A DNA stretch of 64,000 nt from Escherichia phage EPFV3-03/2025. Positions 26,744 through 46,209 of the stretch are shown here, one piece after another. The stretch lies in sequence record PV435126.1, one strand, 5' to 3'. The stretch's first letter is position 1; each line of letters starts with the position of its first letter. The translations under genes and the position numbers were made by a program. The notes below the pieces were generated by a model that was not told the origin of the DNA, made no database searches, and saw only the letters and a program-made list of their open reading frames with translations.

Positions 26744-28521
26744 TTGAGTGGGGTCTGGTGAAAGATGCTCGCGTATTGATGGGTCAACAACTTGCTGCTG
26801 CAATAGGACCTAACGCAGTGCAGTCTGTCAAACCAGCGTGGTTCGATATCCCAATATGGTCATCTGGAACACCCGGAACTGCGGCAATCAACCCTACCAC
26901 CGGGGATCTGGAAATCTCTTGGGAGGACTTAAAGCAGGTTGGTGGCTGGGATAAGACAGGGTACCAGGTGCAATGGTGGAGATCTGACGGATCGTTAGCA
27001 GCTGATGAGTTTGTTAAGGACAATTTCTACACCATGTCCTCTGCAAAAGCACAGCAATTGTTTGGTCAGGCCACTCCGTCAACGATCACCATGTCCATGA
27101 GTTGTAAAGACAACAGGACTGGAGCTCTGGGACCAAGGGTTGCTAAAGTTTTCTCAGGTATTAAATGGAATCTCCCTGTTCAAAGTGTTTCATGGAAGCA
27201 AATAGGTGATAACAAGCTGCTGGTTACCCCAGCTTGTCAGTTCAACGCAACTCTTAACGTTGATCCTGCTGTTGCGGCAAACTCAGCTAAAGCTTCTGAC
27301 TTCTCTGTGTCTAACACTGCTATGGCAGATGTGAGGAAGATTGACACGCTGAACGCCAGAATTACCTGTAAAAACACTTATGGCACATTCCAGATCATCA
27401 ACAACTTCACAGATGCTGATTCTAAGGTAGTGAGGACAGCAAGCCAGACTCTGAGTTTAGGAACTCTGGCCTACGCGGCCCTGATCACTGAACAGTCGGC
27501 AACACTCCAAGGAGGCGGTGTAGGCAAGTCCATTGCAACACCTGTGTGGAAGCCAAATGAGTGGGTTGTGTTCGATTTGACTGTGGACTTCTCCAGCGAT
27601 AATAACTGGACATGGGTAAGGAATTGCTTGTCACAACTGATGGGTGGTCCAAGCTCCGTTAGTGATAGCCACGACTCCACTGACCCGAGTGTGTTTCAGG
27701 TGGGTAAAACTCACCCGGAGACTGGGGCACCGTTGCCTGACAGGAAGTATGCTTTGGTTTGCATCTCCAACGGCAAGGCAGATGTAACCTTCTCAGGGAC
27801 ACACACATATAACGGCACTTACAACTTCTCTAAAAAGTACAGCCTCAAGGCAGGTAACATTGTAGATGAAGTTGGTGCGTTGTATAATCCAGGTAACGGC
27901 ATAGGGATTGTAGGTGGTAAACTGCAGATGCAGGAACCTTCTATTACCCCTTCCAATGTGCCAGGAATCAGAAAGACTTGGGAAAGTAGTAATACCAACA
28001 TTGCAACAGTGGATGCTACCACAGGGCTGGTAACATTTAAAGCTACTGGGAATGTCACCATAAAGTTTGTAGTTACAGATGATGCAGGGCGCAAAACGTC
28101 TTCAACATCTTTTACTGTCAAACAGATGGCACCACAGTGGAGAATGTGGATAGGTACAGCAACAAACGGGGCATATCCTAATCCGGCAGGGACTTCTGGT
28201 ATGAAGACTTTCTCTACAAGCAAGCCGATGGAGTACGGCAGCGGTCCTAAGGTAGGGCAGATGGTGTACTTTGGTGCGTATATTCCTGAAATTATAGGGC
28301 TTCCGAGAAGTCAGATTCAGTTGCTGTTTGGGGCTGGTGTTGACGATCTTGCCACTTTCGGGTATAGAGACAACATCGAGGCTGCAAGGAGTTCAGGATG
28401 GGTAGGGTTCAGAATGGAGTCTGGAAAGGAAGGCAGGATTCTAGGGACAGCCTCTATAGGTGTTATGTTCCCTGGTGACCAGCAGTATCGTCTAGAAGCC
28501 TACGCAACATTTTCTCGTTAA
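26740..28521 (+). CDS. structural protein with bacterial Ig-like domain
   Basis: 593 aa; start overlaps previous stop (ATGA); segment NIATVDATTGLVTFKATGNVTIKFVVTDDAGRKTSS resembles a Big_2-type Ig-like domain. Confidence 0.55.
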   Translation: MIEWGLVKDARVLMGQQLAAAIGPNAVQSVKPAWFDIPIWSSGTPGTAAINPTTGDLEISWEDLKQVGGWDKTGYQVQWWRSDGSLAADEFVKDNFYTMSSAKAQQLFGQATPSTITMSMSCKDNRTGALGPRVAKVFSGIKWNLPVQSVSWKQIGDNKLLVTPACQFNATLNVDPAVAANSAKASDFSVSNTAMADVRKIDTLNARITCKNTYGTFQIINNFTDADSKVVRTASQTLSLGTLAYAALITEQSATLQGGGVGKSIATPVWKPNEWVVFDLTVDFSSDNNWTWVRNCLSQLMGGPSSVSDSHDSTDPSVFQVGKTHPETGAPLPDRKYALVCISNGKADVTFSGTHTYNGTYNFSKKYSLKAGNIVDEVGALYNPGNGIGIVGGKLQMQEPSITPSNVPGIRKTWESSNTNIATVDATTGLVTFKATGNVTIKFVVTDDAGRKTSSTSFTVKQMAPQWRMWIGTATNGAYPNPAGTSGMKTFSTSKPMEYGSGPKVGQMVYFGAYIPEIIGLPRSQIQLLFGAGVDDLATFGYRDNIEAARSSGWVGFRMESGKEGRILGTASIGVMFPGDQQYRLEAYATFSR

Positions 28522-28538
28522 CAAGGGGGTAAATAAAA

Positions 28539-28564
28539 AGGGGCCAAACGGCCCCTTTCTTTTT
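28539..28564. terminator. bidirectional rho-independent terminator (AGGGGCC-AAAC-GGCCCCT flanked by A-run and T-run)
   Basis: Perfect palindromic stem between convergent genes at the strand switch. Confidence 0.7.
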
Positions 28565-28568
28565 ATAG

Positions 28569-28772
28569 TTAGTAATACTCCCAACATGCCCCATCTTCAG
28601 ACGGCTTGACGCGCTTACCTTTATGGTCAACATAGGTATAGCCACAACCTTCACAAATAACAGGTGCTGCATAGCCGCCTTCCTTCCACTGATCCTCAGT
28701 GATCAGACCTTCCAAATCTTTGCAGTCAAAGCCAAACAACTCTTCAGAGCAATCTTTACAAAAATCAGCCAT
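28569..28772 (-). CDS. small zinc-ribbon protein
   Basis: 67 aa with two CxxC pairs (CKDC...CEGC). Confidence 0.5.
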   Translation of the reverse strand: MADFCKDCSEELFGFDCKDLEGLITEDQWKEGGYAAPVICEGCGYTYVDHKGKRVKPSEDGACWEYY

Positions 28773-28775
28773 TTC

Positions 28776-29240
28776 TCAGTCCTCGCATTTAACAAATTTT
28801 TCTATAGATCCACCAAGCACAGCTTGTTGTTTGATGGCACTTTCTTCATCATAGTGGATAGACTTATGTTCCGTACCTCCAAACTTACCTGTGTGGAAGG
28901 TGTGCACCCAAATCTCTTTAGGAAGGGATTTATTCTCTTCCTCCACCAACTCCCACATACCCCACAAGTGATCTGTGATATCTCTGATGAAATATCCCTC
29001 GCCGAGGTTTGTATTCACACTATAAGCTGATTCGTGATCTCCGCAAATATAACGGAAGGCAGTGTACTCTTTACCTGGTGTGAAGTGAGTATCCATTAGT
29101 ATGGCTGTTAAAGAATAAGGGTCTCGAAAGCCCAAGAACTTTAGTTTAACAATTTCGACATCTACCTCTGCAAGATTATCCATGACGATCTCCTCTGTTT
29201 GGTTGGTGAGAATTATATATAGATCTGGTGTTGGTGTCAA
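28776..29240 (-). CDS. hypothetical protein
   Basis: 154-aa ORF in the minus-strand cassette. Confidence 0.5.
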   Translation of the reverse strand: MTPTPDLYIILTNQTEEIVMDNLAEVDVEIVKLKFLGFRDPYSLTAILMDTHFTPGKEYTAFRYICGDHESAYSVNTNLGEGYFIRDITDHLWGMWELVEEENKSLPKEIWVHTFHTGKFGGTEHKSIHYDEESAIKQQAVLGGSIEKFVKCED

Positions 29241-29344
29241 GCTTAATTTTAAGAGATCTGAGAGGGTATTTTATTCAGGGAGGCAATCGCACAGGGTTGG
29301 GAAATTTATGAAGGCACAGGCCTCGTTTGAGGCCTTAAAATAGA

Positions 29345-29728
29345 TTACGACGATACCTTGACGGGTTTATCTGATAAGGCTGGGAAGCCTAAAGCAGCAC
29401 CTAGACCGCCATACGCTATCCACCATTGAAGTTCATCGTGACACCATTTTCCAATCAAGAAGGTGCTGTAGTAGCGGGTCAGTATCTTGGCATAGGCTTT
29501 AGGATCTGCATCCTCAGGTATGATAATGCTTGGTGGGCGTTTGTTATGACCACAGCAGCAGTTTAAAGTCTTCAATCCTGCTGCCCATAGACTCATGACA
29601 GGCTTAGCCATGCACTTATCAAGGCACACACGTTTTTTGCCGTCACGGAGCTTTTTAGGCACATCAACGATAACATTTTGATGCTTGGCACCTTTCACTT
29701 TCCAATTATAGGATTTACACTTGCACAT
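29345..29728 (-). CDS. hypothetical Cys-rich protein
   Basis: 127 aa with CKCK and NCCCGH motifs; possible metal-binding protein. Confidence 0.45.
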   Translation of the reverse strand: MCKCKSYNWKVKGAKHQNVIVDVPKKLRDGKKRVCLDKCMAKPVMSLWAAGLKTLNCCCGHNKRPPSIIIPEDADPKAYAKILTRYYSTFLIGKWCHDELQWWIAYGGLGAALGFPALSDKPVKVSS

Positions 29729-29946
29729 TTAATCAGTCCCCATTTAGAAATCCACACTATTACGTTTTTGAGGCATACCTTACTTAAAGTCTTTATCACC
29801 TGTTACGATTGCACGAATCCACTCATTGTGATGCGTAATGGCGGCAAGGTGTAACATAATGTGGTGATTGTCATTGCCAAGCACGGCGTGATAAGTTTTA
29901 GCAACACCCTGATATAACTTCCACATCAAGTAATGGTATCTTCGTT

Positions 29947-30426
29947 TCATGGCTCTTTCTCCGGTTCAGGATCTGGGTAATCTTCAATAATAAAGGGCCA
30001 TCCGTTACGCTTAGCGTCAGACTTATACTCAATTTCCTTCATTGCAAACTCTAACTGATTCTTGGCCGGAATGCAAGCTGGAGAATCATCAACCCAGATG
30101 TCTGGGTAGATATCAAACTGCGCCAGATAAGCGGCCTTCTGAACGCCTCCAGTATAAAACACTCCAACATCGAGCTCCTTGCGCCAGTATTCAATGTCCA
30201 CATTATCTTGAGTGATGAACCGAAAAGTCACAAGGTAGACTGTCCACCCTTCCTTCTTCAGGTCCTTAATCAAGCGGGAGAAGATGAAAGGGCTCGCATT
30301 AAACGTTCCATCAAAGTCAATGGCAATGATATGCGTGCCGTGGCGAGTCTCATATGGATTGCTCGTGGTAAGATTGCTGTAGTTAAAAGGCACTTCTTCC
30401 CCGCAGTAGCTGTAGTCCATATTCAC
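29947..30426 (-). CDS. HAD-superfamily phosphatase-like protein
   Basis: 159 aa; IIAIDFDGTF matches HAD motif I (DxDGT); WVDDSP resembles motif IV. Confidence 0.55.
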   Translation of the reverse strand: MNMDYSYCGEEVPFNYSNLTTSNPYETRHGTHIIAIDFDGTFNASPFIFSRLIKDLKKEGWTVYLVTFRFITQDNVDIEYWRKELDVGVFYTGGVQKAAYLAQFDIYPDIWVDDSPACIPAKNQLEFAMKEIEYKSDAKRNGWPFIIEDYPDPEPEKEP

Positions 30427-30698
30427 ACCTTCTCGTTGATAAATTTACGGGCGGTTTGGTGAGTTGTTTCCGCTGTCTTTAGAATAATATCGATCTTATT
30501 GTCAAGATCATTCATCTCAGCAGTTAATTCAGGGATCTCTCCAGCATGCATGGTGAAATCATACATAGACATGCCTATAATCTCATTGATGCGGCGGTTG
30601 CATTCTGCAGCACGCTGGTTCATTTTCCAAGCTAATACCAAAGCCTCCTGCGTGGCTTCTAGTGCAAAGTCTAATACATCTGCCTCTTCTTTCGTCAT
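30423..30698 (-). CDS. hypothetical protein
   Basis: 91-aa ORF, overlaps neighbour by 4 nt. Confidence 0.45.
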   Translation of the reverse strand: MTKEEADVLDFALEATQEALVLAWKMNQRAAECNRRINEIIGMSMYDFTMHAGEIPELTAEMNDLDNKIDIILKTAETTHQTARKFINEKV

Positions 30699-30753
30699 CT
30701 CAGTCTCTCCTGTTTATTGTTGATAGGTGTATGAATGCCTTATAACTAACTCT

Positions 30754-31320
30754 TTATTCAAATTGCAATAGCAAGTCCACCACCGCGCTAGGCCTGTCAA
30801 CAAACTCCCCAGGTCCGCATGCCCACAGAGGGTATCCGTCCACATACCTCCATATCCAACCTGAAGTGTGGAGCTCAAGAAGGGCAGTACCATCCTTACT
30901 GTTAACAACTCTTTCCCACAGTGTTGGGCAGCGAAGCTTTAGGATAGGATCCCCACCCTTATACCCGTCCATGTAGATACCCATTGCAAAGTTCAGCATC
31001 ATCTTTTTGTGCACTGACCTCTTACTGAGGGTGCTCATCACTTCCTCCTTGTGGATGTTTGTAAGCTTCTCCTTGGCTACCTGCAGATCGTTGCAGCCAT
31101 TGTTCAGAAGATCTTCCAGACACTTTACCCTAAGGTCGTGGATATCTTTGTCGTGCACCGTTGGTACAGGGTCGTAGCGATATAGCACTGTTGATACAAG
31201 GTTGCTAGGGTGTGGGTCTGACAGCAGTCCATAACCCCAATACTCTTCTGTATCTGAAAGGACAAGACACCCAATATCTCTGTCAAGCTTTCCTGTGTTG
31301 TAAGCCACATTGACCGCCAT
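30754..31320 (-). CDS. hypothetical protein
   Basis: 188-aa ORF. Confidence 0.5.
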   Translation of the reverse strand: MAVNVAYNTGKLDRDIGCLVLSDTEEYWGYGLLSDPHPSNLVSTVLYRYDPVPTVHDKDIHDLRVKCLEDLLNNGCNDLQVAKEKLTNIHKEEVMSTLSKRSVHKKMMLNFAMGIYMDGYKGGDPILKLRCPTLWERVVNSKDGTALLELHTSGWIWRYVDGYPLWACGPGEFVDRPSAVVDLLLQFE

Positions 31321-31322
31321 GA

Positions 31323-31568
31323 TTATAGCTCCACTAACAAAGTGCTTTCAAAATGCCTCTCATGCAGACCGCTATAAGGAACCACTTCCACAACACCGTC
31401 GCGGATATATGGAGTCATCATGGCAACATAATCACCGAATGGGTGGGCATTATCACTAACCACAACCACATGCTGCCCCTCCTTGGCAGAGTGCCAGATA
31501 GATCTGCATTTCATCATGTGTTCGAGAGCGCCAGGTAAAATCTTGTTACGTTCTTTACGGGTCTTCAT
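31323..31568 (-). CDS. hypothetical protein
   Basis: 81-aa ORF. Confidence 0.4.
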   Translation of the reverse strand: MKTRKERNKILPGALEHMMKCRSIWHSAKEGQHVVVVSDNAHPFGDYVAMMTPYIRDGVVEVVPYSGLHERHFESTLLVEL

Positions 31569-32014
31569 AACAGGTATAGCTCCTTATGAAAGTGGGCTTT
31601 CAATTTCTCACCGAGAAACTTCTTGATACCTTCCTCTAAGGTGTTTTCGATGTAGTCCAGCTTAACTGCTTCGATGGACATATCATAGATCGCCAGCTCT
31701 AAGCTGTCAAGTCCCATCATAGCATGAACCATAAGATTTTCATCTTCAGATACATTCAGGGGGCTTCCTATAACATCTGGAGGCAGAATAGTTTCCCAAT
31801 TATTCTGGGTGGTAGCTCCCCCGCCATCCACCTTACGTCGCAGCTCGAAGGTGTTCTTAGTGTAAAACACTTCATAAGAAACGATACGACTATCGCTCTC
31901 GTAATAAACGAAGTTAAGGTAGGAGCCGAGCCGTAGTCGGCAAACTTCTACCCCAAACCATTGTTTCTTATAAGAATTCAGGCTAATGCTGTCGCATTCA
32001 CGTTTGCTCAACAC
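31565..32014 (-). CDS. hypothetical protein
   Basis: 149-aa ORF. Confidence 0.5.
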   Translation of the reverse strand: MLSKRECDSISLNSYKKQWFGVEVCRLRLGSYLNFVYYESDSRIVSYEVFYTKNTFELRRKVDGGGATTQNNWETILPPDVIGSPLNVSEDENLMVHAMMGLDSLELAIYDMSIEAVKLDYIENTLEEGIKKFLGEKLKAHFHKELYLL

Positions 32015-32029
32015 GGCTCTCTCCTTTTG

Positions 32030-32263
32030 TTAATCTTCGTAAATCAGGATCTCTGCTTTAGGTTTTCGTGCTTTCAGGTCCAGCTCTATCCAGTGCACCA
32101 TAGCTGTTTCAAGAAAAACAGCCTGGATGCATCCGTCTTCAGCGTGTCCTACCAACATAACAAGATCTTCACCTTCGTCATCTTCATCACGAACATACAA
32201 AATCTCTCCGGACTCAAAGTCTTTTACAACCTGATTATTAGATAATTTACGAATTTTTGCCAT
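32030..32263 (-). CDS. hypothetical acidic protein
   Basis: 77-aa ORF. Confidence 0.45.
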   Translation of the reverse strand: MAKIRKLSNNQVVKDFESGEILYVRDEDDEGEDLVMLVGHAEDGCIQAVFLETAMVHWIELDLKARKPKAEILIYED

Positions 32264-32264
32264 A

Positions 32265-32528
32265 TCAGAAACCCTCTAAAAAGCTCTTGTAGAAAATAAT
32301 CTCAGTATCTACACCAGTCACGATCTTGTCGTTCCTGATTTCATCTGTAAGATAGGTGTCAAAACGCAGAACCTGTGTGGTGTTGTCACACATCCACTCG
32401 GCTGTGACCATGGCAAAAATCTTAGCATCTTCATTGTCCGGTGTGAATGTTACCACCTCACCGCATTTAAATTTTTCGATAGGCTGCGTGTTAGCTTTCG
32501 GTTCTGCAATGGTGATTTTTGTGGTCAT
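32265..32528 (-). CDS. hypothetical protein
   Basis: 87-aa ORF. Confidence 0.45.
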   Translation of the reverse strand: MTTKITIAEPKANTQPIEKFKCGEVVTFTPDNEDAKIFAMVTAEWMCDNTTQVLRFDTYLTDEIRNDKIVTGVDTEIIFYKSFLEGF

Positions 32529-32794
32529 TACTCTTCCTCCATAGTTTCACCAAATACTTCGATACGAGCGTCAAGCTCTGTTGCTTTCAGTTCTCCAACA
32601 AAATCTTTCAGTTCTTTCTCGTCAAGATCATATGCCCACACACAAGATGAGCATGCAGATTTCACGATCAGCAGTGTAGATACACGGCCTGACTCTGTAA
32701 TCATGCTCACAATGGTTCCTACAGGGAACGTGTTGATAGCTTTTTTAACTGGGCGTTCAGCTTTAATTACCACTTCTGTTGCCATAAATAACAT
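32528..32794 (-). CDS. hypothetical protein
   Basis: 88-aa ORF. Confidence 0.45.
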   Translation of the reverse strand: MLFMATEVVIKAERPVKKAINTFPVGTIVSMITESGRVSTLLIVKSACSSCVWAYDLDEKELKDFVGELKATELDARIEVFGETMEEE

Positions 32795-32800
32795 CCTCTC

Positions 32801-34282
32801 TTATTTGGCGTACTCGATTAATTCTACAGTTTTCCCAAAGCTTGGGATATAATTTTTATTATACCCTTCGGTGAGAACCCATAAAGTATCGTACTTTTTC
32901 CACTTGTTGTCAACAGCCTTTTGTTCAAAGTTATGCTCAAAGTATAGGTCGGTCAGGACGATGACATCTTTTGCATTTGGTATGTTAGCGTCCAGATACT
33001 CGAACACGCAAGCGGCTGTTGTTCCCCATGTTGAGTGGACCTCATAGTTGATCATCTCGTCGATGTTCCCCCGAGTGTATACTTTAACCTCTCCAACCTC
33101 GGTTGACCAGCAGAACATCGTAACCTTGAACTCTTTATACAGATTGCACAACCCAGTGATCTCATTGAACATTTTCTTTAAAGTTCTTTGAGAGATCGAT
33201 CCAGAAACGTCTAGAGCCACCACAATATCTATAGTGTTTTCCGGATTACGGCCCGGAACAACAACGTGCTGATTCTTGTTTATAGCCCCAACTTTTCGCA
33301 TTGTGCTGGTCAAAGACCCAGATCGGCGACCGGGTTTTCTGTAGGTTAGTTCAGCCTTTCGTTTAGACAGCATACGTTGCTTAATGATGTCTATATAATT
33401 GATTACAGGCTTACCTCTGTTCTTGACAAACTCACGCACAGCCTCAGGGCAACGACCTCCGGAAGCCTGCATTGCTGCTTCCAACATGTCACCAGAGTCC
33501 TGCATGGCTTGATCTTTATCAGATTGGCTGATCACTGGTTGTGGCTGATCATACCCCATCGCCTTTCCAAGATCATCACTAGTGCCACCGTTACCACTCA
33601 TGTGATCATCGGTTTGTCGTTTATCTCCTTGAGAGTTCTCGCCTTTACCGTTCTTACTTTTACCACTATTCTGATCTCTTTGCTTATCAAGAACCGCATA
33701 GACGTTCTCAGCAATCCATCCATGGAACCTCATGTCACAGTAGCAACTAGCTAAGAAGCCAAAAGGCTTACCTTTTACGAACTCAGTGCTTTTCCCCTTC
33801 GGGAAGAAAACACAAGGAGGCTTGCTAAAGTCAACCACAAGACCTGTGTTGATAACGTGATCACAAGCAATATTGAACAGTTCCGGCTCAAAGCTTTTAC
33901 CACGGACCAAATGATCACAGATAATATGCCCCACCTCATGTGACAGAAGAAAGGCCACCTCTTTCACAGATTTTGGGGAATAGAAAACCTCAGCCATCTC
34001 AAACTGCTTGTCAGTCAGAGATGCTTTAAGAATGGTTTTACGCTCATCTGCCAGCCCCATAATGAACTCAGGGCTGTAGTAGATGCGTTTATGGTCTGTT
34101 GCCATAGTGGAGCACCATGTGTGGTTTTCTACGAACTGCAACCCTGACAACAGTGTGCCATAAAACGGCAGCTTTTCAAGAAGATACATGCGTGCTGCCT
34201 GCAGCATTCGCAAGGCGTCATCTTTTTGTGCGGCAATGATTTCTGAACTTCTGCTATCCATTAAAACTCCAGAAGGGGCCAA
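32801..34282 (-). CDS. vWA-domain protein with N-terminal HExxH metallopeptidase-like motif
   Basis: 493 aa; HEVGHIICDH (HExxH) in the N-terminal half; C-terminal VVALDVSGSIS is a MIDAS-type DxSxS motif. True start is probably the internal Met (MDSRSS, near 34260) because the track N-terminus overlaps a hairpin. Confidence 0.65.
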   Translation of the reverse strand: MAPSGVLMDSRSSEIIAAQKDDALRMLQAARMYLLEKLPFYGTLLSGLQFVENHTWCSTMATDHKRIYYSPEFIMGLADERKTILKASLTDKQFEMAEVFYSPKSVKEVAFLLSHEVGHIICDHLVRGKSFEPELFNIACDHVINTGLVVDFSKPPCVFFPKGKSTEFVKGKPFGFLASCYCDMRFHGWIAENVYAVLDKQRDQNSGKSKNGKGENSQGDKRQTDDHMSGNGGTSDDLGKAMGYDQPQPVISQSDKDQAMQDSGDMLEAAMQASGGRCPEAVREFVKNRGKPVINYIDIIKQRMLSKRKAELTYRKPGRRSGSLTSTMRKVGAINKNQHVVVPGRNPENTIDIVVALDVSGSISQRTLKKMFNEITGLCNLYKEFKVTMFCWSTEVGEVKVYTRGNIDEMINYEVHSTWGTTAACVFEYLDANIPNAKDVIVLTDLYFEHNFEQKAVDNKWKKYDTLWVLTEGYNKNYIPSFGKTVELIEYAK

Positions 34283-34294
34283 TGGCCCCTGTCA

Positions 34295-35350
34295 TTATTT
34301 AACGTGCTTGAAAATACCAGCCAACTCGGTCATTGTCATGCGAGTGGTCTTCATAAGGTCTGTCATAGCCTTCTCCATGATTGGAGATACTACCATAAAG
34401 TTACCCTTGGTGAAACCTTTATTCCAGTCGGTCACTAATAGTGGTTTAAGTCCGGCCCCGAGACGCTCACCAGTCAAAGCACAACATTTTCGGATGTATG
34501 TGCTCTTAAATTGACTGAATGACAGATCAACTTTCATACCTGCATCGTAGAACGTCTGGCAATAGAAAGTGTAAGCTTTGGCAATCTCAACATCGTCAGG
34601 CAGTGCAGGAACCTCTTCTGTAAGCTCTTCTTCGACCCCTTTAGGCTCTTTTTCCTCTTCGTAAGTCTGTTGCATCATCTCTTCAATCTCCTCTGCTACA
34701 GGCTCGTTTACAATGTCAGAAATGTGCTTGTTTGCTCCACGATTAGCCATGAAGTTTTTAAAATCCTGCATTGGTGACATATCTTCCTCCCATTCTTCGT
34801 CAAAGAGTGCTAGTTTATCCTCTTCCGTTCCATATTGCAAGATGAAATCTTCAAAAGTGTAATCACCTTTCAATTTCTCCATACGCTCTTCGCTCAGGTG
34901 GAGCATCATCTGCTGGACAATTTTTCGATCAGTTTTGTCTTTAATCAAGACTGCGGTCTTTTTATCTACCAGGCAGTCCTTTAGAGAGTTGCATCTCAAT
35001 CCCACCACACAACAATTATCAACAGCATAAGGACCTTCATCATCTATCCGCTCTAGGGAGGGGTAGAAAGGATTTCCCAGTCCGTTTTCATCTGTGTGCA
35101 TGTCGAAAGGTATAAGGGTATAGTCGCACACCCCCTCTCCTAAAAGTTTTTTACCAAATAGGAGGTATTCTTCCCATGACAGGTTGAACTCTATATCTCG
35201 TTTCCGTGCATTATTTTGTTTGCGTCTGTATTTTTTGAGCAGGCGCTCTAACTCTTCTGGTGTATAATATTTTTCAAGATTCATGAGTTGTCTCTTGTGC
35301 TCTGTAGGTGAAGAAATCTTATCAAGTGCCTCAACAGATGTCAACCTCAA
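34295..35350 (-). CDS. hypothetical protein with HNH-like (His-Me finger) motif and acidic central region
   Basis: 351 aa; segment CDYT...SLERIDDEGPYAVDNCCVVGLRCNSLK resembles SLDRID-type HNH nucleases; a degenerate second copy (CALTGERL...KGFTKGNFMVV) near the C-terminus; Glu-rich middle. Confidence 0.45.
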   Translation of the reverse strand: MRLTSVEALDKISSPTEHKRQLMNLEKYYTPEELERLLKKYRRKQNNARKRDIEFNLSWEEYLLFGKKLLGEGVCDYTLIPFDMHTDENGLGNPFYPSLERIDDEGPYAVDNCCVVGLRCNSLKDCLVDKKTAVLIKDKTDRKIVQQMMLHLSEERMEKLKGDYTFEDFILQYGTEEDKLALFDEEWEEDMSPMQDFKNFMANRGANKHISDIVNEPVAEEIEEMMQQTYEEEKEPKGVEEELTEEVPALPDDVEIAKAYTFYCQTFYDAGMKVDLSFSQFKSTYIRKCCALTGERLGAGLKPLLVTDWNKGFTKGNFMVVSPIMEKAMTDLMKTTRMTMTELAGIFKHVK

Positions 35351-35357
35351 AAACGTG

Positions 35358-35386
35358 TTGACTTTACCCTAAATCCACGATATAGT
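35358..35386 (+). promoter_or_regulatory. sigma70-like promoter (TTGACT-17-TATAGT)
   Basis: In the 76-bp divergent intergenic region upstream of 35427. Confidence 0.5.
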
Positions 35387-35426
35387 TCACCCATTCGAAA
35401 GAAAACGAACACAGGAGTACTTAATC

Positions 35427-36326
35427 ATGGCAAATCTTAACAGCTTTAGCACTCGATGGAAACAAGATATCACAACCAATCTCTCTGCAGGCGATATCCT
35501 TTCTGCAATTTACGAGGCTTTGGATGATAAAGCTACTTCAAAATCGGTTTGTACCAACCCGTTAATTCCTATGGTAATGAAGGTGATTGAGCGTAGGTTG
35601 GTATCCGGATCTGATAAGTGGACATATCTGGATAATGGAGGCCACACTTACTCCAACGGCTATGTCGATATAAAAGTAGAATATGCGGTATCATATCGCC
35701 GGAGCGGCTCTGTAACTTTCAACTTCTCTGGTGGTTTCCGATCTCTGGCAACTTCACCTTTTGTTTCCTCAGAGGAGAAGTTTGAACTTCCGTTCCTTTG
35801 GATGATGGCTAACGCGACAGGCAAAACCCCTGTAAGCATTCGCGTAAAATACAACTACAACGGATCTAGTAAGATCTATGCTGAGAGTGTCTCAGCAAGT
35901 TTTTATTTTGTGATGGGGGATGGAATCCTCAAACATATAAAGATGTGCGATATGCATGATGTTATAAATGAAGTGACTGATAAGAATGTTCTGGTGAAGG
36001 ATCTCAACAATTTTTATACACCAGGGGACTATTACGTCAACCGTCCACTGTGCATCTTTAATGCTGCACACCCTTTAGGTGAGTATTTGATTGCCAATAG
36101 TGATATTGCCAATAACCGCTTCGAGGTAGCAAGAGTACAGAATGAGGTGTTGACATCTTGCAAGAGCGGTGATAAGTTTACCGAAGAAGAGATGGGTGTT
36201 TTAGAGATGATGGGATATAAGTGTAGCCTTTGGGTAGATGAGGTGTTTAATGACGGCATCTATGGACAGGATATTTACCCGTTAAAGAAGTATACTGATT
36301 CCAGTTTAATTTACGCGGGGATTTGA
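35427..36326 (+). CDS. hypothetical protein
   Basis: 299-aa ORF, first gene of the + strand early block. Confidence 0.55.
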   Translation: MANLNSFSTRWKQDITTNLSAGDILSAIYEALDDKATSKSVCTNPLIPMVMKVIERRLVSGSDKWTYLDNGGHTYSNGYVDIKVEYAVSYRRSGSVTFNFSGGFRSLATSPFVSSEEKFELPFLWMMANATGKTPVSIRVKYNYNGSSKIYAESVSASFYFVMGDGILKHIKMCDMHDVINEVTDKNVLVKDLNNFYTPGDYYVNRPLCIFNAAHPLGEYLIANSDIANNRFEVARVQNEVLTSCKSGDKFTEEEMGVLEMMGYKCSLWVDEVFNDGIYGQDIYPLKKYTDSSLIYAGI

Positions 36327-36601
36327 CTATGATGAAGGCATGTGGTAGTGTATACTATGTGGGTGAAAATGTTCAGGCAGACAGTGTGTGGAAATCCATT
36401 AAGTCCACCACCGATGATGCCTTCTTGAGCGGGTTATGTTTCCCCAATCCCGGAGACATTCTCCCTTACCCTGGGGATTTTGTTGTCAACAAGACGGACG
36501 GTTATACCGTGTGCCTGATGGTAGAAAAAATCTTTTTAGACACTAGACACAATCACCGTCTTGTGTTAAAATTTCAAGAATGTAAAATGACAGTTGCCTA
36601 A
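36323..36601 (+). CDS. hypothetical protein
   Basis: 92-aa ORF overlapping previous stop. Confidence 0.4.
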   Translation: MTMMKACGSVYYVGENVQADSVWKSIKSTTDDAFLSGLCFPNPGDILPYPGDFVVNKTDGYTVCLMVEKIFLDTRHNHRLVLKFQECKMTVA

Positions 36602-36613
36602 GGAGGCCTACCA

Positions 36614-36970
36614 ATGTCTAAAGTTACTTATCGTGCAGCTATTTACTGCAATGAGCAACCAATCAATAATGATGGTCACTGCTTTTTTAAAGAAAATCAG
36701 TTGGGCTGTATTGCCCTCCTTGATGAAGGGGAAGGTTATATGATTGCATTGACAGGGTTTGAGCCTGAAGCCTTGGAAGCCAATCTGGACTACCTGGTAG
36801 AGAAGGGTGCTGCAGACCTGGTTGCCAATGGCCTCTCCATAAGCCTTGAAGAAGTGGAGCGCTTCATGGGCAATTACCGTGTAGTGCGTGAGTTTACTAT
36901 CGAGGTGGAAACTCCGGAGTGGGGTAGCACTGAAACTAATGCTGAAGAAAAAGAAGAGGGGGTAGAATAA
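36614..36970 (+). CDS. hypothetical protein
   Basis: 118-aa ORF; RBS AAGGAGG. Confidence 0.45.
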   Translation: MSKVTYRAAIYCNEQPINNDGHCFFKENQLGCIALLDEGEGYMIALTGFEPEALEANLDYLVEKGAADLVANGLSISLEEVERFMGNYRVVREFTIEVETPEWGSTETNAEEKEEGVE

Positions 36971-37227
36971 TGAAAGTGCAGATCTTGACTAATGCCGAGA
37001 AGATGTTTATCGAAGATACGCCTTTTGAAACTGGTGAGCTACAGTTTGTATATTTTGTTGACTTAGATAAGGTTTTTCCTGCGCTGAATCTGGGTTTGGA
37101 GAAAGTACCTTATAAAACTCTATGCCAGGTTGTCCGTGCCTTAGCCGCAGATGGGGAGTTCCACACCCTTGAAGATATCCAGACCTATGGGTATCTTGAA
37201 CTGCAACGAGAAGAAGAGGTAGACTGA
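36970..37227 (+). CDS. hypothetical protein
   Basis: 85-aa ORF. Confidence 0.45.
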   Translation: MKVQILTNAEKMFIEDTPFETGELQFVYFVDLDKVFPALNLGLEKVPYKTLCQVVRALAADGEFHTLEDIQTYGYLELQREEEVD

Positions 37228-37229
37228 TA

Positions 37230-37610
37230 ATGGCCCAGTGGAAGACAACAGTTGACCTTCATGATCAGTGGTTAGGACGCATAACTGAAGACGGGAAACT
37301 GGTAGAGTGGGACAACAAGCATGTTAGCGAGTTGGCAAGTATTGTGGCTGGCAAGTTACGCTCCAAGTTCCCTGAACAACTGGATCCTGATAGTTCAAAG
37401 TTCGATCCTGAGTTGGAGGATGTTGTATACTACTTCGACACCGTGGATGACTACGATGCGTGGTTTGCAGCACTGGAGTTATACCCACAAGGATCCGCTA
37501 TGCGCCGGATGGAAGAAGATTACCCTCCGTGTGAGCAATTCAATAGTGCAATGACTTGCCTTTATGATTGGGCAGATAAGAACCTTGTCTGGATTCGGAC
37601 TGCATTTTAG
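37230..37610 (+). CDS. hypothetical protein
   Basis: 126-aa ORF. Confidence 0.45.
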   Translation: MAQWKTTVDLHDQWLGRITEDGKLVEWDNKHVSELASIVAGKLRSKFPEQLDPDSSKFDPELEDVVYYFDTVDDYDAWFAALELYPQGSAMRRMEEDYPPCEQFNSAMTCLYDWADKNLVWIRTAF

Positions 37611-37654
37611 TGGGTAGGGATGGCGGCAAGGATGCTGCTTAAGGAGCAGTAGAG

Positions 37655-37924
37655 ATGTTATACCAGCAGTACGAACTTCGTGCAGAAAAAGAATTAAATT
37701 TTGACAAAGATATTCACAGATATTATTATGGGAAAGTTAGAGGGCAAGCAAGAAAGTGTACTCCAACACTCTTTCATGCCAGCAGACGACTAGCTCCAGA
37801 AGAGGCAACAGCAGAAAGGGTTGCATATGGCTGGAGAGTTGCGTATGATATTGACAGATCCGATGTGATGTCTGTTTTGGAAAACTTTGAAAACACTTAC
37901 ACACAAGTAGAGGACTTTTACTAA
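37655..37924 (+). CDS. hypothetical protein
   Basis: 89-aa ORF. Confidence 0.45.
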   Translation: MLYQQYELRAEKELNFDKDIHRYYYGKVRGQARKCTPTLFHASRRLAPEEATAERVAYGWRVAYDIDRSDVMSVLENFENTYTQVEDFY

Positions 37925-39108
37925 TGTCAAGAAACGTATTCGAAAGTGGTCAAATCACTGTCCGCGAGTTGCCAGCTATTATTCAATTTGCCCAGCGTCA
38001 TAACCGATCTGTCCTGATTTTAGGACCGATGGGTGTGGGGAAGAGCCAGGTGATGAAGCAGATTGCTGATAATATGTTCGGTGAGCGAGATGACAACCTG
38101 GTTGACGTGCGGCTGTCAGATAAAGATCCTGCTGACTTGTCTGGACTGCCTATCCCTGTAGAGGCAGATGGAACTACACGCACAGTGTTTGCAATTCCAG
38201 AATTTTGGCCTGCAGACTCGGACTGGAGCGGAATTATCTTTCTGGATGAGCTTACTCATGCAGATAACTACCTGCAGAAGGTTGCAATGCAAATTATGCT
38301 CGACCACAAGTGCGGCACCTATGCATTTCCTAAGGGCTCTGTTTTTGTAGCTGCAGGTAACCGTGCTACAGATGGTGCTGTTCTTTCAGCGCTCGAAGCT
38401 CCTCTGGCTAACCGCTTTATCATTGTAGAAGTTACAAGCAATGCAGAGGTATTTATTGAGGACTACGCCTTCCTTAATGGTGTGCATTCCTCTGTAATTG
38501 GATATCTGAAAAGAGTTCCATCAGCTATCGATAATTATGAGGCTATGGCTGAGATTAATTGTCCATCTTTTGCCACACCGCGATCTTGGGTTGCTGCATC
38601 TGACATCCTGCACGATTTTGACAGCGGCATTATTTCTGACGCTATGGCTCGTGTTCTTCTGCAAGGTGCTATTGGTCACACTGCAGCGGTAGAAATCTGG
38701 ACCTACCACACCAAGAAACGAAACTTGCCAGAAATCGGTCGGATTATGGCAGGGGGTTGCAAAGAATATGTAGGTCCTAAGCAGCCAGATATCTTGTGGA
38801 TTCTTGGGTCTGAAGGCTGTATTGCTATTCGGAATATGATGGAAAATGCAAGTGTCTCAGATGAAGATCTTGTTAGCTGCGTGGCAAACTTCCTTGATTT
38901 CCTTTGGGAAAATTTCAAGGATGAGAACCGAGACTTTGTATTCTCAGTCTTTATGGCGATGATGAAACCCAACGCCCTAGGAAATGCCTTACTTATTGGT
39001 AAAGGTCGGGACAAGATCGTTGCTCAGCTGATCAAAGCATACCCGAACCTGATGAAGATTGTAAAAGAGTTTGGTGAAGAGTTTAGCGCCATTTTAGCTA
39101 AAGCTTGA
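37924..39108 (+). CDS. MoxR-like AAA+ ATPase
   Basis: 394 aa; Walker A GPMGVGKS, Walker B IIFLDELTHA, sensor-like AAGNRATDG and PLANRF; architecture as in MoxR/RavA/AAA_5. Confidence 0.7.
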   Translation: MSRNVFESGQITVRELPAIIQFAQRHNRSVLILGPMGVGKSQVMKQIADNMFGERDDNLVDVRLSDKDPADLSGLPIPVEADGTTRTVFAIPEFWPADSDWSGIIFLDELTHADNYLQKVAMQIMLDHKCGTYAFPKGSVFVAAGNRATDGAVLSALEAPLANRFIIVEVTSNAEVFIEDYAFLNGVHSSVIGYLKRVPSAIDNYEAMAEINCPSFATPRSWVAASDILHDFDSGIISDAMARVLLQGAIGHTAAVEIWTYHTKKRNLPEIGRIMAGGCKEYVGPKQPDILWILGSEGCIAIRNMMENASVSDEDLVSCVANFLDFLWENFKDENRDFVFSVFMAMMKPNALGNALLIGKGRDKIVAQLIKAYPNLMKIVKEFGEEFSAILAKA

Positions 39109-39117
39109 GGAGGTTGT

Positions 39118-39498
39118 ATGGCTAAAGTAGGTAAGCGGGGAAACTACTTGGTGGTATTGACAGAGGAGCCGGAGAAGGAGTACGAATGCAGCTCCACTTG
39201 CGTGATCGATATCCGAGAAAAAGATGTAGATGAAATCTGGTTTAAAATATTAGACGCTTGCGACAGCAGTGACTATTTCTTCATCTATGTCAACGATAAA
39301 GCGGGATTCTTCCATGACGATGGAGAGTTACCGTATGAAATCTATGAGCTTGTAGAGGCTTGTCATCGTGGAGATGCGGAGTTGTTTGGCCTACGGCTGA
39401 AAAGCGGTAAATTCTTCTACCAAGACGAGTGCATGAATCTTCACAACTTCGTAGAGGGAACTTGCAACGATGGAGAGATTCTGGCACACTACGACTAA
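39118..39498 (+). CDS. hypothetical protein
   Basis: 126-aa ORF; RBS GGAGG. Confidence 0.5.
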   Translation: MAKVGKRGNYLVVLTEEPEKEYECSSTCVIDIREKDVDEIWFKILDACDSSDYFFIYVNDKAGFFHDDGELPYEIYELVEACHRGDAELFGLRLKSGKFFYQDECMNLHNFVEGTCNDGEILAHYD

Positions 39499-39511
39499 TT
39501 TCTAAGACCAC

Positions 39512-39537
39512 CCCCGCTTCGGCGGGGATTTTCTATT
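39512..39537 (+). terminator. rho-independent terminator (CCCCGC-TTCG-GCGGGG + T-rich)
   Basis: Third copy of the UUCG-loop hairpin. Confidence 0.7.
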
Positions 39538-39547
39538 TGGAGTTATT

Positions 39548-40048
39548 GTGAAAATTAAAATCTTTGCTATTATTTTGAGCGCATTTTTATCGCTGCCTGT
39601 TGTTGCAGCACCAAAACAAAAAGTATACCACACCTGCAAGCCATCGGATACTAAGGAGAACATTCTGGCATGCAATATCTACAGGGAAGCCAGAGGAGAT
39701 GGCACGATGGGTATGCTGGCATCTGGGTTTGCCACACTAAACAGGAAATCTCACCCTAAATACCCAGACACTATAAGAAAGATTGTCTACCAACCTAACC
39801 AGTTTTCGTGGACAAACCACGGCAAAACTTTTAAGGTGACAGAAAAAGATTCATGGGATCACGCTAAAAGTCTTGCAAAGATGCTTCTAAAGGTCTATAA
39901 TAACAACCATGTTGCATACATGGCTATGGATATAACAGGTGGAGCAACACACTATCATACAACAAAAGTACGACCGGAATGGGCAAAAAAGATGCAGAGG
40001 ACAGCTCAATTCGGGAGTCATATCTACTACAAGGAGCGCAATAAATGA
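39548..40048 (+). CDS. secreted cell-wall hydrolase (SleB-like), candidate lysis enzyme
   Basis: 166 aa; N-terminal signal-peptide-like KIKIFAIILSAFLSLPVVAAP; core ILACNIYREARGDG...NQFSW resembles the SleB/Hydrolase_2 family. Confidence 0.55.
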   Translation: MKIKIFAIILSAFLSLPVVAAPKQKVYHTCKPSDTKENILACNIYREARGDGTMGMLASGFATLNRKSHPKYPDTIRKIVYQPNQFSWTNHGKTFKVTEKDSWDHAKSLAKMLLKVYNNNHVAYMAMDITGGATHYHTTKVRPEWAKKMQRTAQFGSHIYYKERNK

Positions 40049-42027
40049 TTGTAAACAGTAATGAAACTAAAGCAGTGCTAACTGGGAATTTGGAGGTCAC
40101 AAGGGGATCAATTTCTCTGAACAAAGAGACTTTTGGGTTAATCATTAAAGGGATTTATGAAGATAAGGTGCTGGCAAGCTGCCGTGAACCAATCTTCAAT
40201 GCTGTAGACTCCCATGTTGAGTCTGGACGTGGTGATGTTCCGATCATCATTCACTCCCCTACAGATCTTGAACCATACTTCTTTGTGCAGGACGTTGGCC
40301 TCGGTATGTCAGAAGAGATGGTCCGCAACACTTTCATGAACCTCGGTGAGTCAACCAAGCGCAACAGCAACGCTCTGGTAGGCAATAAAGGTGTTGGTTC
40401 AAAGGCCCCGTTCAGCATGGTGGACACTTTCGATGTAATCAGTGTGCACAATGGTGTGGAAAGCACATATCTATTGTTCTTGGATCAGGGTATCCCAAAT
40501 GTCACCAAGATCCGTGAGCGGAAGACTGAAGAGCACAACGGGGTAAAAGTTCAGTTTCATGTTAAGAAAGAGCATGTTCTGAAATATCGCACTGCTATTG
40601 CATCATGTCTGCGCTATGCAAAATTTCCGTTCACTGTCACCGATCCGATGACGAGCAAGATGCTGGAGGGAGACAAAGTAGAGGCGCAGTATTATTATGA
40701 AAAAGATGGTTGGAAGATGACCATCCTGAAGGGCTATACCAGCTCTGACGAGAGTCGTGTGGTAATGGGTCACCAACCTTACCGTTCTAAGTTCCTGGAA
40801 ACACTAACAGATTATCCTGCAATTTGTGTAGAGATCCCTATCGGAGATTGCAATATTAACCCAGGGCGTGAGTGGACCATAGAAGGTCACGACGATGGTG
40901 GATTCCAAGATCGTTTGGAAGCTTTTGTCAAAGAAGGCATTCGCCTTCGTGGAGCAGAAGTTGTTGCAGAACTGGAGACAGCAAAAACATCCTCAGAAGC
41001 ACGCGAGATGATGAAGAACAGTGGAGTGTTCGGGCACATTTTCGGCAAGAATTTTATGTATGACCGCTGGGAAGAAACAGGGTTAGGGAGTTTGGGGGAC
41101 TGCGAGATCTTCGCTGGCGGCTTAAATAAAGGCCGCATAGGTTACGCCTGCTACGGAAAGGTAGAATTCTTACGGGGAGTTTATTTAGTATTTAACGACG
41201 GAGACGGCAAATATAACCGGAATAAGTGTAACTACTTAAGCGAGATCACCGGACGCAACGTTTTCTATTGCCGGAACACGGATCTGGTAAAAGAGTTTAA
41301 AGAGGCGGCACACCATCCGTTCTTTGCAGATACGGTCAAATTGTTATCAGAGCTCCCTCGCCGACCTGTGAAGAAAGGTGAAACAAAAACTCGTTATGAG
41401 CCCGGTTATTGGGTTAAAAAACTTGAGAAGGATGGTTACTTCCGTCGTGAGCGTATTACCAAGGCAGAGTTCAGGAAGATTAAGCACTGCATACCATATG
41501 AGGGGGATATCCAACGTGGAAGTTGTTGGCTAGGTCAGATGAGTAACATCTACCAGCAAAATTATGACCGTGTGCGTGCGGCACTCCAGATCCCTGAAGG
41601 GGAAGATCTATACCTGGTATCGGAATCTCGTCTGCTTTGGACTGATCCTGATTGCCAGTATGTTACAGAGAAGAATGTGGAACATTTGTTGAAAGAGGAT
41701 GCTTGGAAATTCTTACTGACTCGCGCAGCAAATGAAACTTCATATGACAGCCTGTATAGACAGTTGGGAAAAATTATCCCTATGCAAGATTTTGGAAATT
41801 ATAAGCCACATTTCCACAAGTGGGAAGGTAACACCACGTGGAAGTACGGTGAGCTGAATCATCGTGCCAAAATCTTAATCGCCAACCGGGTTAAGTGCGG
41901 GAAGGCATATATTGCGAGACTGGAAAAGAAATATCCACTTTTGAAGCATGTAGGCTTGAAATATTGGGACACTCCTGCTATGATTGAATACCGTGAACTG
42001 ATTGATACAAAGAATAACATCAAATAA
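40045..42027 (+). CDS. rIIA: rIIA-like protein (GHKL-type ATPase fold)
   Basis: 660 aa; N-box-like REPIFNAVDSH, G1-like VQDVGLGMS, G2-like GNKGVGSKAPF as in T4 rIIA N-terminus; immediately followed by an rIIB homolog. Confidence 0.6.
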   Translation: MIVNSNETKAVLTGNLEVTRGSISLNKETFGLIIKGIYEDKVLASCREPIFNAVDSHVESGRGDVPIIIHSPTDLEPYFFVQDVGLGMSEEMVRNTFMNLGESTKRNSNALVGNKGVGSKAPFSMVDTFDVISVHNGVESTYLLFLDQGIPNVTKIRERKTEEHNGVKVQFHVKKEHVLKYRTAIASCLRYAKFPFTVTDPMTSKMLEGDKVEAQYYYEKDGWKMTILKGYTSSDESRVVMGHQPYRSKFLETLTDYPAICVEIPIGDCNINPGREWTIEGHDDGGFQDRLEAFVKEGIRLRGAEVVAELETAKTSSEAREMMKNSGVFGHIFGKNFMYDRWEETGLGSLGDCEIFAGGLNKGRIGYACYGKVEFLRGVYLVFNDGDGKYNRNKCNYLSEITGRNVFYCRNTDLVKEFKEAAHHPFFADTVKLLSELPRRPVKKGETKTRYEPGYWVKKLEKDGYFRRERITKAEFRKIKHCIPYEGDIQRGSCWLGQMSNIYQQNYDRVRAALQIPEGEDLYLVSESRLLWTDPDCQYVTEKNVEHLLKEDAWKFLLTRAANETSYDSLYRQLGKIIPMQDFGNYKPHFHKWEGNTTWKYGELNHRAKILIANRVKCGKAYIARLEKKYPLLKHVGLKYWDTPAMIEYRELIDTKNNIK

Positions 42028-42037
42028 GGAGACCAAG

Positions 42038-43243
42038 ATGATTTTCATCTACGAACATTTCAAAACCCGTAAAGAAGCACGAGACCGCCGTGCAGAACTT
42101 GAGAAGAAGGGTTTCACATGCGCTATTGAGAAAGGTAACACAACCTGGACACTGGCCGTGGGTGCCCCAGAGGTGTTCGATCCTGACCGTGACAGCGTTT
42201 GTTACACCCGTGAGGATTTTGAAACCCGTGAAGAGGCCCGTTTATTTCGATATGGGCTGGAAGACAACGGCAAGTACGCCATGATCTTGGATTTAGGGGA
42301 GGAGTCCTTTAAACGCTGGGGAGTGGTATACCCGCTGTGCGTTGTTCACGGTGTGGGGTTCACTGGGGTAGCAGTTAAGTCAGAAGAACCTTCGGTAGAA
42401 GTCAAAGATCCGGTTCTGGAGGTGGTGAGCAGTGTGTCTCAGCAACAGACTCGAAGCATCGAGCCTCTGGTAGTTATTTGTGGGGAACTCTTGCAGATCA
42501 CTTGCAACGAAGGCATTTTTGAAATTCGCCGCAGTGAAAGTGGGGAAGTTTACCAGAAAGTCTTCAACCATATCTCTGTTCAGGAGTATGACGAGGCAAT
42601 TGGTGAAATCCTTGTCTGGCTGGAACGCAAGAATGAGTTCACTACACTGGCAGACAACCTGATCATGAAAGATGGTAAGCTCTACTACTACGGTGTAGAG
42701 ATGCGATCTACCATTGCAAAGAAAATTGAGAAAGATTATGCAGATGGAACACTGGATGACCGCTATGTGAAATTCCTAGTTCGCCTGTTACGCAATCCGT
42801 CTGCAAAATCTGTAAACATGCTCTACGATTTTATGCAGGCAAACGACATTCAGATTGCAGAAGATGGTCGAATCATTTGCTACAAAGGGGTTCAGTTTAA
42901 CGGTAACAAGTGGGTGGATTGGCACAGCGGTAAAGTCCCACAATACCAGGGAGCTTTTGTATCCATGCCTCGTAACTTTGTAGAGGATGATCCGGAAGCT
43001 GCATGCTCTTATGGCCTGCACTGTGCCAGCAAAGAGTATGCAAAGAGCTACGGCACTGTGATGACGGTTATGGTTGACCCTGCCGATGTGGTCAGCGTAC
43101 CTTACCAACACAACAGCGCTAAGTGCCGTGCATGCCGCTACGAAATCGTAGTAGCTCCAGAATCGCGCAAAGATGGAGACCCAATCGAGTACGTGGTTGA
43201 CCGCGACGGCAACACTATCGACACTATCTACGAGGAGGCGTAA
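42038..43243 (+). CDS. rIIB: rIIB-like protein
   Basis: Track ORF 42002-43243; likely start ATG 42038 after GGAGACC RBS. C-terminal half (DFMQANDIQIAEDG...GLHCASKEY...VDPADVVSVPYQHNSAKCRACRYEIV) closely parallels conserved T4 rIIB blocks as recalled. Confidence 0.65.
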   Translation: MIFIYEHFKTRKEARDRRAELEKKGFTCAIEKGNTTWTLAVGAPEVFDPDRDSVCYTREDFETREEARLFRYGLEDNGKYAMILDLGEESFKRWGVVYPLCVVHGVGFTGVAVKSEEPSVEVKDPVLEVVSSVSQQQTRSIEPLVVICGELLQITCNEGIFEIRRSESGEVYQKVFNHISVQEYDEAIGEILVWLERKNEFTTLADNLIMKDGKLYYYGVEMRSTIAKKIEKDYADGTLDDRYVKFLVRLLRNPSAKSVNMLYDFMQANDIQIAEDGRIICYKGVQFNGNKWVDWHSGKVPQYQGAFVSMPRNFVEDDPEAACSYGLHCASKEYAKSYGTVMTVMVDPADVVSVPYQHNSAKCRACRYEIVVAPESRKDGDPIEYVVDRDGNTIDTIYEEA

Positions 43244-44948: not shown

Positions 44949-45008
44949 TAAGATGTGAGCATAAAGGGGAGGAACTCCTCCCCACAAAACTGAGGAGAGC
45001 ACCAAACG

Positions 45009-45706: not shown

Positions 45707-45718
45707 TGGGAGAGTGTT

Positions 45719-46201: not shown

Positions 46202-46209
46202 CACTAGGT

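Follow-up and report, generated by a model that had tools for sequence, protein, structure and literature searches.

The locus considered here raises the question of what a phage protein made of two nuclease-like modules and an acidic region does, whether it cuts nucleic acid, regulates its host or blocks host defences. The gene lies in a stretch of 64,000 nucleotides from Escherichia phage EPFV3-03/2025 (PV435126.1), called the window below, which belongs to a coliphage of the genus Vequintavirus (rV5/FV3-like). A 4-kb region centred on the gene shares 97% identity with Escherichia phage HMD-6 and has matches in 119 phage records, vequintaviruses showing 97% nucleotide identity. An earlier note, made from the sequence alone, had described a tandem pair of HNH-like modules, the second one degenerate, and had favoured a regulator or an anti-restriction factor.

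A 351-aa open reading frame is present on the minus strand at 34295..35350, as the earlier note had it, and it holds the three peptides quoted there, which in the numbering used below (329 aa) are CDYT...NSLK (aa 53-102), a Glu-rich stretch (aa 198-224) and CALTGERL...FMVV (aa 268-299). Its start had to be moved. The TTG at 35350 is almost certainly spurious and the true start is the ATG at 35284, giving 329 instead of 351 residues, because a sigma-70-like promoter lies within the N-terminal extension, a 990-nt CDS is annotated in the public records of FV3 and HMD-6, and distant homologues begin at the position equivalent to this ATG. The gene is present in a single copy, and no further copy of either module was found elsewhere in the 64-kb window. 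The features of the region are listed in Table 1.

Table 1. Features of the two-module gene and its surroundings (positions in the window; residues in 329-aa numbering).
Feature	Positions	Strand	Residues and remarks
Two-module protein, CDS	34295..35284	minus	329 aa + stop; homologue of rV5 gp11 / FV3_00011
N-terminal extension from TTG 35350, spurious	35285..35350	minus	22 codons; promoter-like site inside; absent or unconserved in distant homologues
N module, PacI-type His-Me finger (predicted)	34949..35260	minus	aa 9-112; E78, R79, Y86, N90, N99, K102
Beta-beta-alpha core of N module (predicted)	34964..35062	minus	aa 75-107; beta1 PSLER, omega loop with Y86, beta2 CCVVG, helix with N99 and K102
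Helical middle region	34739..34948	minus	aa 113-182; first part family-conserved, last part acidic insertion (gap profile)
Acidic linker, predicted disordered	34598..34738	minus	aa 183-229; Glu-rich stretch aa 198-224 at 34613..34693
C module, catalytically degenerate copy	34298..34597	minus	aa 230-329; keeps C268, T271, G272, D286, N295
Sigma-70-type promoter-like site	35316..35344	minus	TTGACA-17-TG-TAAGAT; extended -10, 10/12 consensus matches, TG present; leftward early operon
Divergent sigma-70-type promoter-like site	35358..35386	plus	TTGACT-17-TATAGT; rightward operon
GC-rich hairpin, putative	34274..34290	minus	AGGGGCC-ATT-GGCCCCT; within the 33 nt that separate this gene from the following one (ATG 34261)

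The gene heads a short leftward early operon, in which it is the first gene after two divergent promoter-like sites. These sites agree with the bidirectional promoters described between rV5 genes 10 and 11 (PMC3606486); a literature search on vequintavirus early transcriptomics returned nothing specific. The gene is an early, sigma-70-driven core gene of the Vequintavirinae. The hairpin that follows it may be an attenuator or an element of mRNA stability.

The relationship between the two halves of the protein was addressed by profile comparison. Two conserved blocks already looked alike in an alignment of 12 homologues, and a comparison of the halves with hhalign based on these 12 sequences was only suggestive (P=0.003, probability 11%). 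With about 140 diverse homologues (107 effective sequences), the N module (aa 14-112) and the C module (aa 228-329) were aligned over 83 columns with a probability of 98.2% and E=6e-14. The T4 protein Srd, through its residues 30-80, matches each of the two modules (E=9e-8 and 5e-4), and in the predicted model the two halves share one order of secondary structure elements: long helix, helix, two strands, helix, helix. Judged from these alignments, the second copy is a true homologous duplicate and not a chance resemblance.

The N-C architecture was found in 158 of the 172 relatives retrieved. In an exhaustive profile search, 487 clusters scored below E=1e-10, with lengths mostly of 250-300 aa and matches spanning the whole profile; no Pfam family covers this two-module family. 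The C module is an ancient duplicate, in which the fold and several basic residues have been kept.

Which fold the modules adopt is not evident from standard domain profiles. The full-length protein matches phrog_3118, annotated 'HNH endonuclease' (E=4e-112), and further PHROG matches of the N module, with values of 1e-10 to 1e-13, are to families labelled endonuclease, endonuclease VII, Srd and sigma decoy. When the protein was scanned with Pfam and NCBIfam, neither HNH nor Endonuclease_7 nor sigma-factor domains were detected, and the Pfam HNH and Endonuclease_7 profiles were silent for all 139 members of the family; an HNH assignment is therefore impossible from Pfam profiles alone. The HNH or His-Me finger signal expected by the earlier note was thus missing from Pfam, but was obtained with PHROG, with a family profile run against the PDB and with structure searches.

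When the profile built from 139 sequences was compared with 177,635 PDB sequences, the sole significant match was the restriction enzyme PacI (3LDY; E=4e-4), residues 30-123 of which aligned with the N module. The N-module HMM alone matched PacI with E=1.7e-4. A profile is needed to reach PacI, as single-sequence phmmer searches of the PDB returned only noise. The C-module HMM did not match PacI by sequence, and the kinship of this module with PacI rests on its fold and on its homology with the N module.

The AlphaFold model of the protein has a pLDDT of 88.9 overall, and of 94-98 in both modules. In the N module it predicts strands at residues 75-79 and 91-95 and a helix at residues 96-107, forming a beta-beta-alpha core that is aligned to PacI residues 89-123; helices at residues 117-182 follow, for which pLDDT is 92-97 as far as about aa 160. 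Structure search places the protein in the His-Me finger superfamily, and a search with the C module by itself led to the same placement. On this predicted model, both halves are PacI-type His-Me fingers. Despite the high pLDDT the pTM is 0.57, indicating that the two modules are not confidently docked by AlphaFold; a fixed PacI-like pseudo-dimer is therefore unsupported by the model.

PacI is an atypical His-Me finger enzyme, in which a tyrosine of the omega loop stands in place of the general-base histidine, and an Asp and an Asn coordinate a single metal ion (PMC5714182, PMC4081073). In the HMM alignment, the PacI sequence V-D92-R93-S-D ... G-Y100-S-P-Q-N104 ... C-N113-R-I-K116 corresponds to L-E78-R79-I-D ... 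P-Y86-A-V-D-N90 ... C-N99-S-L-K102 in the phage protein. In the aligned sequence of PacI, Y100 is the sole tyrosine of the beta1-beta2 loop. Conservation at these positions was counted in 139 two-module proteins, for which the mean column identity is 16% (Table 2).

Table 2. Residues equivalent to the PacI catalytic set in the N and C modules of 139 two-module proteins.
Role (by equivalence to PacI)	PacI residue	N module	C module
Metal ligand	D92	E/D78, 139/139	hydrophobic
Canonical His position	R93	R79, 139/139	hydrophobic
Replacement general base	Y100	Y86, 139/139	V/I/F; Y in 7/139
Structural Asn	N104	N90, 139/139	N295, 128/139
Helix metal ligand	N113	N99, 134/139; H in the other 5	Q/G/A
Phosphate contact	K116	K102, 135/139	L/M

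The catalytic set is thus 96-100% conserved in the N module. The canonical general-base histidine is absent from the end of beta1, where all the sequences carry an arginine; this is not a sign of degeneration, since the same arrangement, with an omega-loop tyrosine, is that of PacI. The C module has lost both metal ligands, the acidic one and the helix Asn, together with the Arg, the Tyr and the Lys, and its catalytic positions are hydrophobic or variable. Positions related to the fold are kept (C268 in 126, T271 in 102, D286 in 118 and N295 in 128 of the 139 sequences). The C module, which has the same fold, serves as an internal control: on the simplest reading, the catalytic-set residues of the N module are conserved for function, namely catalysis, and not for folding. 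From these patterns of conservation, the N module is probably a working nuclease domain, and the C module probably a stably maintained pseudo-nuclease. The tandem pair of related modules and the degeneracy of the second copy, both proposed in the earlier note, are borne out by these results; its preference for a protein "rather than an active nuclease" does not fit the near-invariance of the PacI equivalents in the N module.

We propose that the protein is a single-chain, two-module PacI-type His-Me protein with an active N module and a dead C module, acting early on nucleic acid, a reading to which we give a little better than an even chance (about 55%). In this mechanism, E78 on beta1 and N99 on the helix would hold one divalent ion, and Y86 in the omega loop would fill the role of the missing histidine, the usual position of which is occupied by R79; N90 would be the structural Asn and K102 would touch the phosphate. 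The N module would then be a one-metal, tyrosine-assisted phosphodiesterase, and the C module a second unit for binding or positioning the nucleic acid. A monomer may thus be the functional counterpart of the PacI homodimer while having a single active site, and would then be expected to nick its substrate or to cut it at one site. The helical region and the flexible acidic linker, enlarged only in this phage clade, connect the modules. As the product of a core gene that is transcribed first from a sigma-70 promoter of the host type, the protein most likely acts at an early stage of infection, in the takeover of the host, on nucleic acid of the host or the phage; candidate substrates are host DNA, or RNA in view of the link between T4 Srd and RNase E-dependent decay of host mRNA.

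This link with Srd is also the basis of the first alternative, which we consider possible but doubtful: the protein would be a non-catalytic takeover regulator of the Srd type, which binds RNase E or RNA polymerase/sigma factor and alters host mRNA stability or transcription, the fold being used as a binding scaffold. The N module is indeed homologous to T4 Srd (NP_049634; BLASTP E=9e-8, HMM E=5e-19; phrog_1400 Srd, 2.9e-10). Moreover, rV5 gp11 was described as a probable Srd homologue on the basis of PSI-BLAST similarity (PMC3606486), which is the source of the 'anti-sigma factor' label. As the work is cited by others, Srd, the sole relative with published functional work, was reported to bind and stimulate the catalytic N-terminal half of RNase E and to speed host mRNA decay (Qi et al., 2015, via PMC13232886 and PMC4980113), a mode of action that is not that of a nuclease and so counts against our preferred reading, and a position behind an early promoter suits a takeover factor. 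However, only residues 4-133 of Srd align, the N and C HMMs both land on one and the same region of Srd, no second (C-type) module was found in T4 Srd, and Srd residues ~100-248 are without counterpart in the phage protein. Since the N module is all that Srd has in common with the phage protein, the 'anti-sigma factor' label is based on a homology that is only partial. Furthermore, the sigma-decoy, or anti-sigma, role of Srd is only 'postulated' in the T4 record, and sigma-factor regions or an anti-sigma domain were detected neither in the protein, by Pfam and NCBIfam, nor, in any consistent way, in its 139 relatives, by Pfam. Nor does a pure scaffold account for a conservation of 100% at precisely the PacI catalytic residues in one module when the other, with the same fold, is devoid of them. 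Finally, E, R, Y, N and N of the catalytic set are also present in Srd, which may therefore be catalytic as well, and the nuclease and regulator readings are not exclusive. Our literature search found nothing linking Srd with HNH.

A bolder extension of the two-module nuclease reading, which we regard as improbable, would combine both activities. The protein would be a natural single-chain 'heterodimer' making strand-specific nicks or single cuts in nucleic acid of the host, the whole Srd-related superfamily would consist of tyrosine-dependent nucleases, and the stimulation of RNase E by Srd would result from, or be coupled to, its own cleavage, for example by producing the 5'-monophosphate ends that RNase E prefers.

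A further alternative is a free-standing homing endonuclease, that is, a selfish HNH gene whose product cuts the genomes of related phages devoid of it and which spreads by recombination. Many phage HNH genes are homing endonucleases, PacI-like ones in Skunavirus have been so classed (PMC12724721), the present gene is annotated HNH endonuclease in records, and its catalytic residues are intact. The distribution of the gene makes this very unlikely. It occupies the same locus in Vequintavirus, Seunavirus (4MG) and Henunavirus (Hena1), with protein identities down to 37-39%, as expected from vertical inheritance. In all three genera a divergent intergenic region is followed first by this gene and then by a DUF2201_N/DUF2201 gene of ~480 aa, the product of which is metallopeptidase-like and VWA-like, with a MoxR-type ATPase gene on the opposite side. 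The gene is found in 117 records at a protein identity of at least 90%, in all of them at the same position, and the adjacent MoxR core gene is likewise found in 117 records, at a protein identity of at least 95%. These equal counts, together with the synteny across three genera, indicate a core gene and not a homing endonuclease. In addition, it heads an operon from its own promoter instead of being inserted within or between conserved genes, and only one copy is present in the window. We conclude that it is a vertically inherited core gene of the Vequintavirinae.

The acidic region between the modules, noted previously, was confirmed: residues 146-229 contain 26 D/E and 6 K/R, of which 15 and 3, respectively, belong to the linker proper (aa 183-229). 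The linker is predicted to be disordered, pLDDT being below 50 for residues 186-207. It varies by insertions and deletions even between homologues more than 90% identical. The inter-module region of the phage protein is 85 aa long with a net charge of -21, compared with a family median of 37 aa and a net charge of -2, and it corresponds mostly to gaps in the alignment of the wider family. The acidic stretch is a clade-specific flexible linker and not a conserved functional element; being disordered in the model, rich in indels and strongly acidic in one clade only, it is not a conserved DNA mimic. It does not resemble the structured, conserved acidic array of Ocr or ArdA, and PHROG, Pfam and fold searches gave no similarity to known DNA mimics. 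We therefore give almost no credence to the view put forward in the earlier note, that an inactive nuclease fold with a DNA-mimicking linker blocks restriction enzymes or DNA-binding defence proteins: the strong net charge, the early expression, at the time when anti-restriction proteins act, and the dead C module would suit it, but the stretch is predicted to be disordered and not a rigid charge array, is short and nearly neutral in most of a family whose modules are conserved, and is joined to an N module that is not degenerate, and nothing was found pointing to an anti-restriction role.

The gene and its family are already present in databases (phrog_3118) and annotated in many genomes, inconsistently and partly wrongly: in hundreds of genomes of vequintaviruses and related phages it appears as "anti-sigma factor", "anti-termination" or simply "HNH endonuclease", and the same wrong label has at times passed to the DUF2201 gene next to it. 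The present analysis re-assigns the two-module protein to the rare PacI-type, tyrosine-dependent branch of His-Me fingers. PacI-like phage HNH enzymes were noted earlier (PMC12724721). We found no earlier description of the placement of the Srd/gp11 superfamily in this branch, of an active and a dead module fixed in tandem, or of the size of the family. The PacI-type branch appears far larger in phages than was apparent, as the wider family, for which Pfam has no model, comprises 11,567 clusters (at 50% identity; E<=0.001), compared with 88 sequences in the 2017 classification. The pairing of an intact and a dead module, kept across very deep divergence, offers a clean natural case of a pseudo-enzyme partner within one chain. 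If the N module is active, one may ask whether nuclease activity also resides in T4 Srd, a textbook factor of host takeover; and if the nuclease reading were true of the whole superfamily, the 'anti-sigma/decoy' annotation in hundreds of phage genomes would be overturned. Phages related to rV5 are candidates for therapy, and a putative early-expressed nuclease in them is worth characterising.

Four known systems can be compared with the two-module protein. One is phrog_3118 together with the metagenomic two-module family, which has the same N-C organization, with a linker much shorter and less acidic than in the present clade. T4 Srd and the gp11 homologue are both early genes of large virulent coliphages, and the N-terminal ~100 residues of Srd are homologous to the N module; the two proteins differ in that Srd has one module only, its last ~150 residues being unrelated to the phage protein, and in that the activity reported for Srd, as relayed by the papers cited above, is RNase E stimulation. 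T4 endonuclease VII and Hpy99I (Pfam Endonuclease_7) belong to the same superfamily, and a weak PHROG match to the endonuclease VII family was obtained (1.5e-10). However, PF02945 gave no match, the catalytic His and the CxxC zinc knuckle of these enzymes are absent here, and PacI is a far better match.

PacI (PDB 3LDY/3M7K; group 20 of Jablonska et al., 2017) shares with the N module the signature [DE]-R-x-D ... G-Y-x(3)-N ... N-x-[IL]-K, and both lack the catalytic histidine and have an omega-loop tyrosine instead. The likeness reaches the helices ahead of the beta-beta-alpha core (PacI 30-62). The two proteins nevertheless differ in several respects. First, PacI is a bacterial restriction enzyme and the phage protein the product of an early core gene, and their identity is only 11-16%. 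Second, PacI has two Cys4 zinc sites per subunit, of which the phage protein keeps only C53 (PacI C63), the positions of PacI C66, C109 and C112 being occupied by T, by G or variable residues, and by A/V, respectively; as zinc ligands are missing, the scaffold of the active site differs from that of PacI. Third, the phage protein has a helical and acidic insertion between its modules, unlike PacI. Fourth, PacI is a homodimer of 142-aa subunits that cuts the two strands of a palindromic site, whereas the phage protein carries two modules in one chain, with one predicted active site kept.

The product of the gene directly downstream of the rV5 gp11 homologue matched two Pfam families, DUF2201_N (putative metallopeptidase, 4e-28) and DUF2201 (VWA-like, 4e-11). 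Several public records label this gene 'HNH endonuclease' or 'anti-sigma factor', labels apparently acquired by annotation transfer from the neighbouring gp11 homologue. The customary partner of a DUF2201_N/DUF2201 protein is a MoxR-type ATPase, and a gene for such an ATPase is present on the other side of the divergent promoter region.

A perfect GC-rich hairpin lies between the operon's first and second genes, and 3' of it a GGAG Shine-Dalgarno sequence and a TTTT run are found on the minus strand. This hairpin may serve as an attenuator, as a site of RNA processing or as a stability element.

Features around and within the gp11 homologue gene
Feature	Position	Strand	Remark
DUF2201_N + DUF2201 gene	32801..34282	-	Pfam; likely ATG 34261; directly downstream of the gp11 homologue
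Hairpin AGGGGCC-ATT-GGCCCCT	34274..34290		in the 33-nt gap between the gp11 homologue stop codon and the next ATG
C268, C module	34479..34481	-	motif C-x-[YL]-T-G
C53, N module	35124..35126	-	motif C-x-[YL]-T-G
Divergent gene	35427..36326	+	public-record label: 'putative alpha 1-3 fucosyltransferase'
MoxR-type ATPase gene	37924..39108	+	other side of divergent promoter region

The product of the divergently transcribed neighbour had no Pfam match at E<=0.01, and its fucosyltransferase annotation looks weakly founded. Sixteen MG0656xx records, deposited as 'Campylobacter phage' with Campylobacter jejuni as host, are about 95.6% identical to E. coli vequintaviruses over a 4-kb region around the gp11 homologue gene; this host label looks questionable. 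No tRNA gene was detected by ARAGORN in the window (1..64000).

Some relatives of the gp11 homologue found by exhaustive profile search carry N-type modules in tandem, four or two per chain: P0123 (852 aa), P0153 (827 aa) and P0167 (295 aa). The S-x-E-R...Y...N motif is intact in only part of these modules; therefore, single chains that combine intact with degenerate PacI-type modules occur repeatedly in the superfamily. In the alignment of two-module relatives, the single cysteine of C-x-[YL]-T-G is almost invariant in the N module (aa 53, 138/139) and likewise in the C module (aa 268, 126/139). PacI, a restriction endonuclease, has two Cys4 zinc sites per subunit, whereas this lone cysteine is the only one of its zinc ligands left in the modules of the gp11 homologue.
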